Source of the DNA: a virus
Virus record (IMG/VR): IMGVR_UViG_3300044739_000018
Coordinates: 64,001-128,000 of that record
Direction: 5' to 3' (one strand)
DNA: 64,000 bases
Shown here: positions 16,416 to 57,325 of the stretch, one piece after another
Position numbering within the stretch: the stretch's first letter is position 1
Layout: each line of letters opens with the position of its first letter
Notes under the pieces: model-generated
What the model was told of the DNA's origin: nothing
Database searches by the model: none
The model's input: the letters and a program-made list of their open reading frames with translations, nothing else
Program-made: the position numbers and the translations under genes

Positions 16416-17186
16416 TTACGACTTCAGTGTGGGTTCGAGCCAGAGCTTCTTGCTGAACATCTCGCGCTCCAGGTACGGGAACATCGAGAGCAGGTGCAGG
16501 GTCTTGAGCGTGTCGTGCTTGAACGCCTTGTGGAGTTCCTCGCGGACACGTTCCTCACTCACACCACCCAGCAGGCTCGCAACCTCGGCGTCTTGGAGCA
16601 CGTCCACGACCGTTGGGTCGAGGTTGAAGCTCTTGGTTACGGCGAATCTGATCGCACGCAGAGCACGCAGCCCATCCTCACGCAGTCGCGTCATGGGATC
16701 ACCCACGAAACGAATGTGCTGATGGGACAGGTCCACGCGTCCACCATGCGGGTCGATCACCTTCTGGCCCGTGTGCCACATGCCCCAGCCATTGGTCACG
16801 CTGTAGGCAAGGTTCGCCATGGCGTTCATGGTGAAGTCACGGCGAGCCAGGTCATCCTCGATGGTGCCAGGCTCCACGAAGTCGGGCCTGCGTCCGTCCG
16901 TGCTTGGCCCATCCTTGCGGCAGAGCACGAAGTCAGCAGTCATCCCACGCCACTCGGCAGGGACCTCGTGCTTCTCCGTGTCACGCGGGAAGCGGGCACG
17001 GATGGTGAGGTACTCCTCGGTGCTGAGGAAAATCTCGAAGCCCTCGTTGAGCAGCCACATGGTCATGGCCTCGAAGCTCGGAGCCTCCACAGCGTAGTCG
17101 ATGTCGTTGCTGCGCAGACCGAGAAGCTTGTCACGCACGCAGCCACCGACCTCGTAGGCGGTGATGTCAATGTCCGTTTGGCCCAC
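16416..17186 (-). CDS. tRNA nucleotidyltransferase (CCA-adding / poly(A) polymerase class II)
   Basis: VGGCVRDKLLG, DIDY, EDDLARRDFTMNAMA, EDGLRALRAIRF, SEERVREEL. Confidence 0.93.
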   Translation of the reverse strand: MGQTDIDITAYEVGGCVRDKLLGLRSNDIDYAVEAPSFEAMTMWLLNEGFEIFLSTEEYLTIRARFPRDTEKHEVPAEWRGMTADFVLCRKDGPSTDGRRPDFVEPGTIEDDLARRDFTMNAMANLAYSVTNGWGMWHTGQKVIDPHGGRVDLSHQHIRFVGDPMTRLREDGLRALRAIRFAVTKSFNLDPTVVDVLQDAEVASLLGGVSEERVREELHKAFKHDTLKTLHLLSMFPYLEREMFSKKLWLEPTLKS

Positions 17187-40332: not shown

Positions 40333-40691
40333 GATGAGAACGTCGACCGTAACTTCCACAAGTATCAATCACAGTTTTCCCAACGGACGTTGAGCATTCT
40401 GACCGCGTACGAGAAAACCTACCGTCCTGATCTGTCCGGCATTTCCCTCAGAAAATCCGTGCAGACGGAAAACTTCTAGAGGCTTGACATGCAAGACATG
40501 ACATCTGATGCACTTTGGGAGCGTTTGGAGACAGCCATCGAAACCGCAATCTTGGCGCGCCGTCGAATGAATCTTGCAACGCCGGGCACCAAGGAGGATG
40601 ATGTGGCGGCCGCCATCGCCTTCAAGACGAAGTGCAAGGCGCACGTGGCCCTCATCAAGCTCATCGACGGAGAAGCAGCTACCCCACAACC

Positions 40692-41198
40692 ATGAACACT
40701 GCACAGAAGAAACCGAAGGAGCTGAACCGTGAACGTCGTCGCACGCGCCGTTGCTACGACCATCTATACGTTGCTCCACTCTGGGTTGCCTTCGAGGCGA
40801 ACCTCGGAACCCTCCTCAGGACTTGCGATGCTGTGGGGGCGTGCATGGCCCTTCCGAGCACGCCGTACTATCGCCAAGCCCTTGCTCGCGGTCGAACCCT
40901 CAACGGGAAGCAGACCTGCGTCCACTGGGTCCAGAAGGGCACCTACGTCGAGTCCATGAAGGGCAAGGCCCGCATCATCGGAGTCGAACTTGCCGATGAC
41001 GCAACGATGTTGGGCGACGTGCGGCCCGCACGGGAACGCACCATCGTCTGCCTCGGACATGAGCACGAAGGTCTTCCGGCAAAGGTCTATCCGCTGCTGG
41101 ACGAGGTTGTGGAGATCCCCATGATTGGCGTGGGTAGCAGCCTTAACGTTGCCGTCGCAGGGTCCCTTGTCTTGTACAAGTTGAGCGGCTTGATCTAA
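40692..41198 (+). CDS. SpoU/TrmH-family RNA methyltransferase
   Basis: NLGTLLRTCDAVG, LGHEHEGL, IPMIGVGSSLNVAVA. Confidence 0.92.
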   Translation: MNTAQKKPKELNRERRRTRRCYDHLYVAPLWVAFEANLGTLLRTCDAVGACMALPSTPYYRQALARGRTLNGKQTCVHWVQKGTYVESMKGKARIIGVELADDATMLGDVRPARERTIVCLGHEHEGLPAKVYPLLDEVVEIPMIGVGSSLNVAVAGSLVLYKLSGLI

Positions 41199-44386: not shown

Positions 44387-44454
44387 ACGCCGGAGTCAAG
44401 GTGATCATCGGGTCTCCAAAACCCGTGGAGTGGGTTCGATTCCTACCCGGCGTG
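44387..44454 (+). tRNA. tRNA-Trp(CCA), reduced D arm
   Basis: ACGCCGG/CCGGCGT; CGGGT-CTCCAAA-ACCCG. Confidence 0.8.
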
Positions 44455-44803: not shown

Positions 44804-44877
44804 GCTCCACTAACTCAATTGGCTAGAGTACCTGCCTCTTAAGCAGGGAGTTCAGGGTTCGAGTCCCTGGTGGAGTA
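44804..44877 (+). tRNA. tRNA-Lys(CTT)
   Basis: CCTGC-CTCTTAA-GCAGG. Confidence 0.93.
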
Positions 44878-44880
44878 CGA

Positions 44881-44951
44881 GCAGGAAGTTCCGGTTCAAT
44901 TCCGGAGGCCGTGGCGCAAGCCAGGGTTTGGTGTAACGGCAGCACACCTGC
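44881..44951 (+). ncRNA. circularly permuted tRNA-like RNA (YrlA-like), copy 1
   Basis: Order: GCAGG, T arm, acceptor stem capped by GCAA, D arm, CCTGC. Confidence 0.7.
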
Positions 44952-44960
44952 GTTGTTCAC

Positions 44961-45034
44961 GGTCCTATAGATCAGATGGTTAGATCGCTACCCTGTCAAG
45001 GTAGAGGCCGCGGGTTCGAGTCCCGTTAGGACCG
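44961..45034 (+). tRNA. tRNA-Asp(GTC)
   Basis: CTACC-CTGTCAA-GGTAG. Confidence 0.93.
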
Positions 45035-46834: not shown

Positions 46835-47594
46835 TGCCCGTCGTGACCTTGGGGACGCTGGCCGAGAAGCTGATCGCTGCCCAGACTGGCATTGACCAGA
46901 TCCAGGTAGAACTCAGGAAGGTCAACGAGCAAGCTCTTGACCGGCGAGTCTCCAAGCTGGAAGACACCGTAAAGTTCTTGAGCCGCACAGTCGCCGCCAC
47001 GCTCATTTCGGCCATAGGGTCGGCCATCCTCGCGGTGGTGATGTCCCGATGAACGAAAAAATGGATGAGACAAAGGCGGACTCCCGCTTCAATGGAGTGC
47101 GTGTCCTCGTCACCGCCATCATTGTCGGCGTATTGGCCGTGGCGGTATTCGTGTCGGCCAGCCTCCTGACGAGAGTGCCGAAGAACGCTCAGGATCTCCG
47201 AGAGCGGTGCGTGTCATCAAACCTGGCGATCCAGCAGTTCAACACCAAGTTCTCGCAGTTGGTTGACTTGTTCGACCAGTCGCTGGCAAACCCGGACCCG
47301 AACAGGCCACCGCCGTCGCCGGAGGTCCTTGCTCTTTACGCCGAGTTCAAAAAGCCCGTCCCTCTCATCAAGTGCGAGGACGACGGCCGCTAAGTTTTCG
47401 TGAACCCAAGCTCAGTAGGCAGAGTAGCCTTCAGGGGCCGGAGGTCGTGGGTGGGATTCCCACCGAGTCCATCATGAGTCGTCACTCGGGTGTAGCGCCG
47501 CCAGGCTGCCTACAGTGACGGTTCATCGTGGGGTCGTAGCTCAGTACCCAGAGCACCGTCTGGAACCTACGAAAGTGCGGGTAACACAACACCT

Positions 47595-47755: not shown

Positions 47756-48023
47756 TGAGATAGCCGGGTGACCGCGGCACGACTTGATCGTGTCGAGGAA
47801 GGTCGGGACTCCACAGGACGAGGGAGCCAACGAGAGTTGGGCGGGCGTGAGCTTGCGGCTCTGCAACAGAGACGAGCCGGTTAAGTCCGGGTGAAACGGG
47901 CAACCCCCTGGAGCAACTTCATACAGAGGTCGCTGGTCCGGCGATAACCTCGGGTAGAAGGCTTAGATGGATGGTCACCGCGCTACATGCTGGCGTACAG
48001 AATCCCGCCTACAAGCTATCTCA
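47756..48023 (+). ncRNA. rnpB: RNase P RNA (compact)
   Basis: P1 TGAGATAGC/GCTATCTCA; CR-I GAGGAAGGTCGGGA pairing with CR-V ACAGAATCCCGCCTAC; GCAACAGAGA and GGGTGAAACGG elements. Confidence 0.9.
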
Positions 48024-48030
48024 GTATCTC

Positions 48031-52262: not shown

Positions 52263-52335
52263 GCCTCTCTGGCGTAATGGATAGCGTGTCGGCCTTTTAA
52301 GCCGGTCGGTCAGGGTTCGAATCCCTGGGGGGGCA
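52263..52335 (+). tRNA. tRNA-Lys(TTT)
   Basis: TCGGC-CTTTTAA-GCCGG. Confidence 0.92.
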
Positions 52336-52343
52336 CTTTTCAT

Positions 52344-52419
52344 AGGCGGGTAGCTCAGAGGCCAGAGCAGCACCCTTACAAGGTGAAGTGCGAGGGTTCG
52401 ACTCCCTCTCCGCCTACCA
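52344..52419 (+). tRNA. tRNA-Val(TAC)
   Basis: CACC-CTTACAA-GGTG; CCA. Confidence 0.93.
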
Positions 52420-52420
52420 T

Positions 52421-52498
52421 GGTGGCCGTAGCTCAGTTGGTTAGAGCGCCAGGTTGTGATCCTGGATGTCGGGGGTTCGAGTCCCCTCGGTCACCCCA
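52421..52498 (+). tRNA. tRNA-His(GTG)
   Basis: G-1; CCAGG-TTGTGAT-CCTGG; C discriminator plus CCA. Confidence 0.95.
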
Positions 52499-53097
52499 TG
52501 AGCACCAAAGTCAAAGAGATCACGTCGAATCCCAACGGGGACCGGCGACGGTGCCAGCTCTGCAATCCAACCCCTGACCGAATTCCACTGGACAAGGTGT
52601 GGGCCTGGTCGCTAGAACATCCAGGAGAACCTTGGAGGCGAAGTGGCTGAGACCCTGACGGACGTTTCCCAGCACTACCGGGAGCGGGCAGAAGTCAGCA
52701 TGTACTGGTGGGACGAGGACGACGAGGTTGCCATGGAGATCGTGCAGGACGCCATGAAGAACCTCATGTTCGCCTTCAAGCGGGCAGGAGTACGAGTACC
52801 GGCCCTGCACGTCACGGGCAGGAAGTAATGGGCGACCCGTTCCGCTGTGGACGTTGCGACACGTGGTTCGACTACTACGAGGCCCTGGAGCGGCACATCG
52901 CGAAGGAGCATCCCAAGCCCTCGGACAAGTCGGTCCTCGCCACCATGCAGTATGAATTGAAGGAGGCGCTGCTTGAAATCCAGCGGCATCATGCCGACTT
53001 CAAGAAGGTCAGTCAGGCCCTCGACGACTACGAGGAGCATGGCGATGCGAAATTGCTTTACAAGACGGTCAGGAGCGTTGTAGGATGATTCCCACGT

Positions 53098-57193: not shown

Positions 57194-57325
57194 ATGGGCA
57201 GTTCCGATTAGCTGTGGGGATGCCGGGGTTAGCCTCCCGGCCGCGGGCACAGGCTCGTGTAGCTCAAAGTGGCGAGCACGCAGAGGCGTGGCTGAAACCC
57301 AGGAAGTACGGATCAACCAGTCCAT
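57194..57325 (+). ncRNA. circularly permuted tRNA-like RNA (YrlA/Y-RNA-like), copy 2
   Basis: CTGTG, T-like arm, acceptor CGCGGGC-ACAG-GCTCGTG, TA, D arm GCTC-AAAGTGGC-GAGC, A, CGCAG; imperfect outer stem. Confidence 0.65.

Follow-up and report, generated by a model that had tools for sequence, protein, structure and literature searches.

Introduction

According to Wang et al. 2018 (bioRxiv 10.1101/312249), a YrlA RNA looks like a tRNA that has been circularly permuted and whose acceptor stem is closed. Their parts follow each other in the order stem, variable region, T arm, closed acceptor, D arm and stem (RF02553; Chen et al. 2014, PMC4201824; PDB 6CU1, Wang et al. 2018). Among the criteria for YrlA are a same-strand Ro60 ortholog within ~4 kb, a long terminal stem made by the two ends of the RNA, and a GNCGAAN0-1G motif close to the 5' end, which is the proposed Ro60 contact. 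In M. smegmatis, whose YrlA has an acceptor stem of 7 bp, RNase P cleaves this RNA and CCA is added to it (PMC4201824). Ro60-linked YrlA has already been described in phages (PMC4201824, PMC12135203, PMC7824862), and binding to host PNPase has been seen in vitro for Y-like RNAs of phages (PMC12135203).

Here we describe an element of 71 bases (44881-44951, + strand) between two tRNA genes of a 163-kb phage. It has the order of parts of YrlA together with the tRNA tertiary nucleotides, and the 15:48 pair of its family covaries. Unlike YrlA, it has neither the GNCGAAN0-1G motif nor the long terminal stem nor the V hairpin; there is no Ro60 gene in its genome, and so no same-strand ortholog within ~4 kb; it is embedded in a tRNA array, with a tRNA gene 3 nt away on one side and 9 nt away on the other; and its acceptor helix comprises the full 7-bp register plus 2 bp. 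With M. smegmatis YrlA it shares the 7-bp tRNA-register acceptor stem and the actinobacterial context, but its helix runs two more pairs into the tetraloop and it has no Ro60-binding strand. The Y RNA cluster of the Streptomyces phage Satis (MH576962.1) has a near-identical T arm and an identical D arm, whereas its 5' strand GGTGCGAC/AAGGTAGCGGTTACTTC, its long closing stem with GGTTAACCGG, its shorter acceptor hairpin and its position adjoining Ro60 have no counterpart in the element.

Two further systems are comparable in part. In the permuted tRNA genes of Cyanidioschyzon merolae, as in the element, the 3' half is encoded first and the break is at the anticodon, but there the halves of an anticodon loop are present, a bulge-helix-bulge signal serves for processing, and the mature products are decoding tRNAs, whereas the element has no loop nucleotides. 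mascRNA, which is freed from MALAT1 by RNase P and RNase Z, is likewise a small tRNA mimic that depends on tRNA-processing enzymes (as we predict for the element) and not on its own promoter and terminator; unlike the element, it is eukaryotic, has the normal tRNA topology and an open acceptor end, and receives CCA. Full-text literature searches returned no account of the module standing free, be it within tRNA arrays or in phages that lack Ro60. YrlA and the permuted-tRNA topology are thus known, and what appears to be new, judged from sequence, is a free-standing variant in the tRNA array of a phage without Ro60.

Results

A permuted tRNA-like element in a phage tRNA array

The window, the 64,000-nt stretch that was analysed, corresponds to positions 64001-128000 of a complete IMG/VR phage genome of 163,481 bp, with terminal repeats and 60% G+C. 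The phage carries ~43 tRNA genes, a tmRNA and an RNase P RNA. The element and its surroundings are organized as follows (window coordinates).

44804-44877, + strand: tRNA-Lys(CUU), upstream flank (Rfam tRNA model, 63.3 bits; ARAGORN)
44878-44880, + strand: predicted 5' tail CGA, the remainder expected after tRNA-Lys 3' processing
44881-44885, + strand: closing stem, 5' strand GCAGG, equivalent to tRNA anticodon-stem positions 39-43 and paired with 44947-44951
44886-44889, + strand: variable region AAGT, the last T being position 48
44890-44906, + strand: T arm TCCGG/TTCAATT/CCGGA, with T54, T55, C56, A57 and A58 present
44907-44928, + strand: acceptor-like helix of 9 positions with GCAA tetraloop
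44907-44915, + strand: 5' strand of this helix, GGCCGTGGC
44916-44919, + strand: GCAA cap
44920-44928, + strand: 3' strand of this helix, GCCAGGGTT
44929-44930, + strand: TG, equivalent to U8 and G9
44931-44945, + strand: D arm GTGT/AACGGCA/GCAC, with A14, A15, G18, G19 and A21
44946, + strand: A26
44947-44951, + strand: closing stem, 3' strand CCTGC, equivalent to anticodon-stem positions 27-31, with no anticodon loop
44952-44960, + strand: predicted 3' tail GTTGTTCAC, expected to end at the tRNA-Asp RNase P site
44961-45034, + strand: tRNA-Asp(GUC), downstream flank (Rfam tRNA model, 70.5 bits; ARAGORN)

The Rfam tRNA model and ARAGORN both support the location between tRNA-Lys and tRNA-Asp given in the initial annotation, whose segmentation of 44881-44951 agrees with ours at every base. 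The element begins 3 nt past the discriminator of tRNA-Lys(CUU), the 3' end of which falls at 44877 according to Rfam and at 44878 according to ARAGORN, and stops 9 nt ahead of tRNA-Asp(GUC) on the same strand. Between 43000 and 46237 the + strand has neither a promoter-like nor a terminator-like site.

The minimum free energy fold of the RNA contains the same four helices (-31.9 kcal/mol, z = -3.2). Sequence and fold together bear out what had been proposed for its topology, namely a 3' half that precedes the 5' half, a molecule that opens at the anticodon and an acceptor stem capped by a GNRA loop. More specifically, the acceptor-like helix has 7 positions in the tRNA register, followed by two further G-C pairs, and includes one G-G mismatch (3:70) and two G-U pairs. 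The nucleotides involved in tRNA tertiary contacts are in place (U8, A14, A15, G18, G19, A21, U48, T54, T55, C56, A57 and A58), and the Levitt pair 15:48 can form as A-U between A15, at 44936, and U48.

Several genes of tRNA maturation lie in the same window.

1731-2885, - strand: RtcB
16710-17156, - strand: CCA-adding-type nucleotidyltransferase
40632-41198, + strand: SpoU methylase, distantly TrmH-like (best match TrmH, sub-threshold)
47756-48027, + strand: RNase P RNA

The CCA-adding-type enzyme, the SpoU methylase, RtcB and the RNase P RNA make up a tRNA-maturation kit of the phage. The array also includes a tRNA-like gene with a reduced D arm at 44387-44454, which is found by Rfam (33 bits) and not by ARAGORN.

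No syntenic relative of the phage was found by exact-word, protein-anchored or BLAST searches. An exact 21-mer of the element had no match in IMG/VR; the anchors used (VWA protein, SpoU methylase, array ORF and primase-helicase) gave either no relative or none with a tRNA array; and tblastn of the primase-helicase against GenBank phages reached at most ~32% identity. These searches thus yielded no close relative of the phage.

The un-permuted element is recognized as a tRNA

In its native order the element is reported neither by ARAGORN nor by the Rfam tRNA model, in line with the earlier expectation that tRNA scanners would miss it, and having no anticodon loop it is not a canonical tRNA (RF00005). 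We cut it at the GCAA cap and rejoined its halves through a 7-nt loop, for which three different sequences were tried; ARAGORN called a tRNA with 3/3 of the inserted loops. As a null set, we treated in the same way all stretches of 55-85 nt that a 5-bp stem encloses, on either strand of the 163-kb genome, which amounts to ~84,000 candidate closing stems. At the default ARAGORN threshold this permuted scan returned 53 candidate closing stems, mainly redundant or artefactual, so that the informative measure is the ranking by threshold. The element is the sole candidate of the ~84,000 that was still called at 108-112% of the threshold, the remaining ones ending at 104% or below, while the real tRNAs of the phage pass at 104-124%. 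A recent origin from a resident tRNA was rejected: the best matches to its halves are weak (68 of ~126 possible), and the absence of any close match to a resident tRNA indicates that the element is not a recent rearrangement.

A family of compact modules in viral genomes

IMG/VR was searched with a pattern that fixes only the letters of the T loop, the GNRA loop, U8-N-G and the D loop and their spacing, leaving all stems free. Among the 26 viral sites that matched, the nine unconstrained positions flanking the GNRA loop form at least 7/9 standard pairs in 20, compared with 0.44 expected from the chance rate of 1.7% per site. After un-permutation, ARAGORN called a tRNA at 21 viral sites, 14 of them compact (68-72 nt), and fifteen compact copies, the window element included, were aligned.

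In this alignment 89% of the cells are paired, versus 37-49% when the partners are slid by 1-3 columns. Two-sided changes occur in 20/23 pairs and all four helices covary, the closing stem in 5/5 of its pairs. This set was partly selected by ARAGORN, which demands paired stems, and for this reason we looked at features that no filter had imposed, namely the extra acceptor pairs and the tertiary 15:48 pair. The two pairs beyond position 72, outside the 7-bp acceptor register, are formed in 15/15 copies with several pair types, and 15:48 is G-C or A-U in 14/15 copies, against 0-2/15 for other unpaired columns.

A covariance model built from the fifteen compact copies (R1) detects one strong copy in the genome of the phage, the element itself, at 70 bits; the next match, at 35 bits, is an artefact of tandem tRNA-Ala and tRNA-Leu. 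In other phage loci R1 found more copies with other caps or with long hairpin extensions, often several per array. A tRNA gene lies within 10 nt of 8/21 viral copies and of the window element. Each of the eight follows a tRNA gene at 2-4 nt, precedes the next at 4-9 nt, or does both; the flanks of the tRNA-flanked copies are not conserved.

Other arrangements were seen as well. Two loci within phage tRNA arrays (L023:433-576(-) and L039:394-536(+)) contain a head-to-tail pair of permuted tRNA-like modules 4-5 nt apart, the second of which has the odd cap CCCTTATGTAAAAGTTCGGG. At L025:2644-2740 and L026:1864-1962 the T arm precedes the D arm and a hairpin of at least 20 bp prolongs the acceptor helix. 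A block formed by G(A/G)CGAATG, 8-10 nt and then GGACTACA is common to L024, L025 and L031, ~15-35 nt upstream of their modules, and is probably the Ro60-binding strand of array-embedded full-length Y RNAs.

Two more candidates in the window were rejected. The region 47438-47560 has the same arm order and a candidate extended acceptor hairpin; of the models R1, Rfam YrlA and R2 (described below), it reached only 24.6 bits, with R2. The region 57194-57325, considered as a YrlA-like module with a terminal stem, has a non-canonical T loop, gave no Rfam YrlA match at E up to 10, nothing above ~15 bits with R1 and nothing at E up to 0.001 with R2.

Kinship with the Ro60-linked YrlA core

The same spacing pattern was used on one genome per prokaryotic species, giving 80 loci (81 sites) of 91 stretches. 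The capped helix has at least 7/9 pairs in 50 of the 81 listed sites (1.4 expected), and a same-strand Ro60-like gene is present within the 8-kb locus at ~36 of these 50. None of the 81 listed bacterial sites has a tRNA gene within 10 nt, a difference from the viral copies with a Fisher p of ~1e-6. As the bacterial module sits by a Ro60 gene and at none of the 81 sites by a tRNA gene, it is, on sequence grounds, the YrlA tRNA-like domain as defined in PMC4201824.

We then built R2, a covariance model from 27 Ro60-linked bacterial cores only, with no phage sequence and no closing stem specified. R2 matches the element end to end with exact boundaries at 45.3 bits, the top match in the 64-kb window; tandem tRNAs, which are an artefact, reach up to 34.8 bits, leaving a margin of ~10 bits. 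The proposed comparison with YrlA models was thus positive with R2 and negative with the Rfam YrlA family (RF02553), which gave no match to the element region at E up to 10 in a 1.1-kb search. The element scores below 15 bits with that model, short of its gathering score of 69 bits, and no Rfam family matches it at E up to 10. The Rfam YrlA model was also run on five phage copies that adjoin Ro60, and four of these matched below threshold (28-41 bits).

By BLAST, the best relative of the element in cultured phages is unannotated DNA ~290 nt upstream of the Ro-like gene, annotated as 'Ro-like RNA binding protein', of the Streptomyces phages Satis, Quantum, Kradal and EhyElimayoE (78.6% over 56 nt). 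In Brevundimonas jumbo phages, other matches are found upstream of the gene for a TROVE/vWA protein. In the T arm, 15/16 bases of the Satis Y RNA (TCCGG TTCAAAT CCGG) agree with the element. The D-arm stretch GTGTAACGGCAGCAC is identical in both, preceded in Satis by TA instead of TG, and the longer TGGTGTAACGGCAGCAC, comprising TG and the D arm, is identical in a Ro60-linked RNA of a Streptomyces chromosome (L093), 64 nt from the Ro60 gene. A metagenome scan with a subfamily-specific pattern recovered only one Satis-like contig, and it bears Ro60. With R2 ranking the element first in the window and Satis Y RNA as its nearest relative, the YrlA-type topology claimed in the initial annotation stands, and these comparisons support a YrlA-type mimic of tRNA in which the order is circularly permuted, the acceptor closed and the Ro60-binding stem absent.

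The Satis region itself (MH576962.1 ~86950-87370; L055:2850-3270, also L151:2080-2400) contains three tandem Y-RNA-like units, unannotated in GenBank, upstream of the Ro-like gene, with a tRNA-like domain in 2/3. Each unit begins GGTGCGA(A/C).GT..CGGTTACTTC, a start that we take to resemble closely the Ro60-binding strand of human Y RNAs; the 5' strand GGTGCGAAGGTAGCGGTTACTTC or a variant of it presumably has the same close resemblance to the Ro60-binding strand of animal Y RNAs. In two MAGs of Actinomycetes and Gaiellales (L090 and L132), 12-18 tRNA genes adjoin a Ro60 gene and a compact module; these arrays may be prophages or tRNA-array islands.

The element lacks the Ro60 module, and several carriers lack Ro60-like genes

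The element had been described as almost without a Ro60-binding stem, and both parts of that module are indeed missing. The GNCGAAN0-1G motif does not occur within 60 nt on either side, and the Satis-type motif is at or below chance across the window (10 matches vs 16 expected). In place of the long terminal stem of YrlA there is a closing stem of only 5 bp, with tRNA genes 3 and 9 nt away. A search for Ro60/TROVE in the phage, which had been suggested as a check, came back empty: no TROVE, DUF2828, DUF7788 or vWA_Ro60 is present in the complete 163-kb genome. A 243-aa VWA protein 2.2 kb upstream was considered as a reduced Ro60 and rejected, having no specific similarity to Ro60 proteins at the sequence level by BLASTP or PDB sequence search.

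Among the 20 element-bearing viral records, 9 have a Ro60-like gene (8 TROVE, 1 DUF2828), and in six the element lies directly upstream of the TROVE or DUF2828 gene. In Bacillus phage PJN02, DUF2828 is fused to a VWA-type domain, as in Ro60. TROVE and DUF2828 are absent from four other near-complete carrier genomes (97-99%, CheckV).

Proteins with DUF2828 and DUF7788/VWA adjoin YrlA-like modules at L058:3353-4813 (Bacillus phage vB_BsuS_PJN02) and in G017 (52310-53047), an architecture suggestive of a Ro60 paralogue accompanied by a Y RNA of its own. In the 99%-complete carrier G008, which has no Ro60-like gene, a compact module (L029:11530-11600) lies ~0.7 kb upstream of RtcB on the same strand, an arrangement that recalls the bacterial rsr-yrlBA-rtcBA operon with rsr missing. 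RtcB was discarded as a general partner of the module, as it is present in only 3/20 carrier records.

Discussion

We favour the reading, which we regard as reasonably probable, that the element is a free-standing YrlA tRNA-like domain that would be released by tRNA processing and would act as a Ro60-independent ligand through its elbow. The element would be transcribed within the long tRNA precursor of the phage and freed by the 3' maturation of tRNA-Lys (RNase Z-type) and the 5' maturation of tRNA-Asp (RNase P); about nine phage copies have a tRNA gene at a distance of 2-10 nt, and their release by RNase P and RNase Z is therefore expected. The RNA would measure ~71-83 nt, that is ~83 with the tails CGA and GUUGUUCAC, perhaps trimmed to ~71. 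We infer that it folds into the L-shape of a tRNA with a normal D/T elbow, an acceptor end sealed by the two extra pairs and the GNRA loop, and no anticodon loop. With the acceptor end sealed and the anticodon loop absent, such an RNA could not decode and probably could not be charged.

Its most likely action would be that of a protein ligand through the elbow, as a decoy, a sponge or an adaptor that works without a phage Ro60. Selection visibly maintains the D/T elbow and the closed helix, which points to an elbow-reading protein as the likeliest ligand. Candidate partners are the effector of the YrlA tRNA-like domain, PNPase, RNase P and the enzymes of tRNA maturation or modification. The domain occurs alone, recurs in tRNA arrays and is found in five near-complete carriers without Ro60, the phage studied here among them, which argues for a function of its own. 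Two suggestions of the initial annotation fare less well. A decoy of anticodon nucleases is unlikely because there is no anticodon loop, and it is not safe to call the RNA uncleavable, as M. smegmatis YrlA is cut by RNase P and the phage has an RNase P RNA and a CCA-adding-type enzyme.

Since the wider family is strongly linked to Ro60, this protein may nevertheless have a part, perhaps one provided by the host. A Ro60-dependent minimal YrlA would bind host Ro60 (Rsr) through the 5-bp stem and the tails, in which pairing of CGA with UUG is possible if one G is bulged out. In favour of this are the kinship of the element to the Ro60-linked Satis RNA, the frequent presence of Rsr in Actinobacteria (PMC4201824), and the Ro60-like genes found, often directly adjacent, in 9/20 element-bearing phage records and beside ~36 of the 50 well-paired bacterial copies. 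We consider this rather unlikely, since the GNCGAAN0-1G motif, which defines the Ro60 site, and the long terminal stem are missing from the element, the flanks of tRNA-flanked copies are not conserved, and four other near-complete carriers have neither TROVE nor DUF2828. Also unlikely, and a little more so, is a two-piece, CCA-tailed tRNA-like RNA, possibly charged or bound by an EF-Tu-like factor, that would arise if RNase P opened the capped helix at +1 and CCA were added. RNase P prefers a single-stranded leader and a free position 73, and both are removed by the pairing of -1 and -2 with 73 and 74 in 15/15 family members, whose helix is closed by a GNRA loop; in addition, the element has a G-G mismatch at 3:70 and no anticodon. 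What speaks for such an RNA is the 7-bp tRNA register of the acceptor helix, the RNase P RNA and the CCA-adding-type nucleotidyltransferase encoded by the phage, and the precedent of M. smegmatis YrlA (PMC4201824).

In nine phage arrays, that of the window among them, the module follows one tRNA at 2-4 nt and precedes the next at 4-10 nt, a placement that would also suit a structural spacer, either processing or insulating, that aids RNase P and RNase Z on the neighbouring tRNAs and is functionless once released; this is improbable, as most tRNA pairs of the same arrays manage without a module, and a spacer needs neither tertiary-pair covariation nor kinship to Ro60-linked RNAs. We give very little credence to a permuted tRNA gene that is circularised, as in Cyanidioschyzon merolae and perhaps by the phage RtcB (1731-2885, - strand), into a decoding tRNA, even though the 3' half does precede the 5' half. 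The joined tails CGA and GTTGTTCAC would give a loop of 12 nt and not the 7-nt anticodon loop; RtcB does not join ends of the kind that RNase P and RNase Z produce, namely 5'-phosphate and 3'-OH; and RtcB is missing from 17/20 carrier records. These three points make circularisation into a real tRNA unlikely, and the bacterial homologues are Ro60-linked non-coding RNAs. A last reading, that the likeness is due to chance or that two tandem tRNA genes are decaying here, draws on the fact that tandem tRNAs mimic the order T arm then D arm and reach up to 35 bits with the models; yet the element has the best permuted score in the genome and no close match to resident tRNAs, and its helices covary across a large family, so that such an origin is hardly to be expected either.

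In conclusion, the free-standing, Ro60-independent elbow ligand is the reading that we retain. The element and its family also show that non-decoding tRNA mimics are conserved in phage tRNA arrays and go unseen by standard tRNA finders and by Rfam, so that tRNA gene counts understate what these arrays encode. We also put forward, tentatively and as a possibility that is on balance doubtful, that phages excised the effector domain of Y RNA into their tRNA arrays as a Ro60-independent weapon, capturing the PNPase or tRNA-elbow binder that host YrlA tethers to Ro60. If this were true, a host RNA-surveillance or degradation machine would be disabled or redirected during infection, and these minimal RNAs would be natural baits for the partner of the YrlA tRNA-like domain. 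Which partner the tRNA-like domain of bacterial Y RNAs serves is a question that dates from 2014, and the element described here may offer a natural bait of 71 nt with which to approach it.
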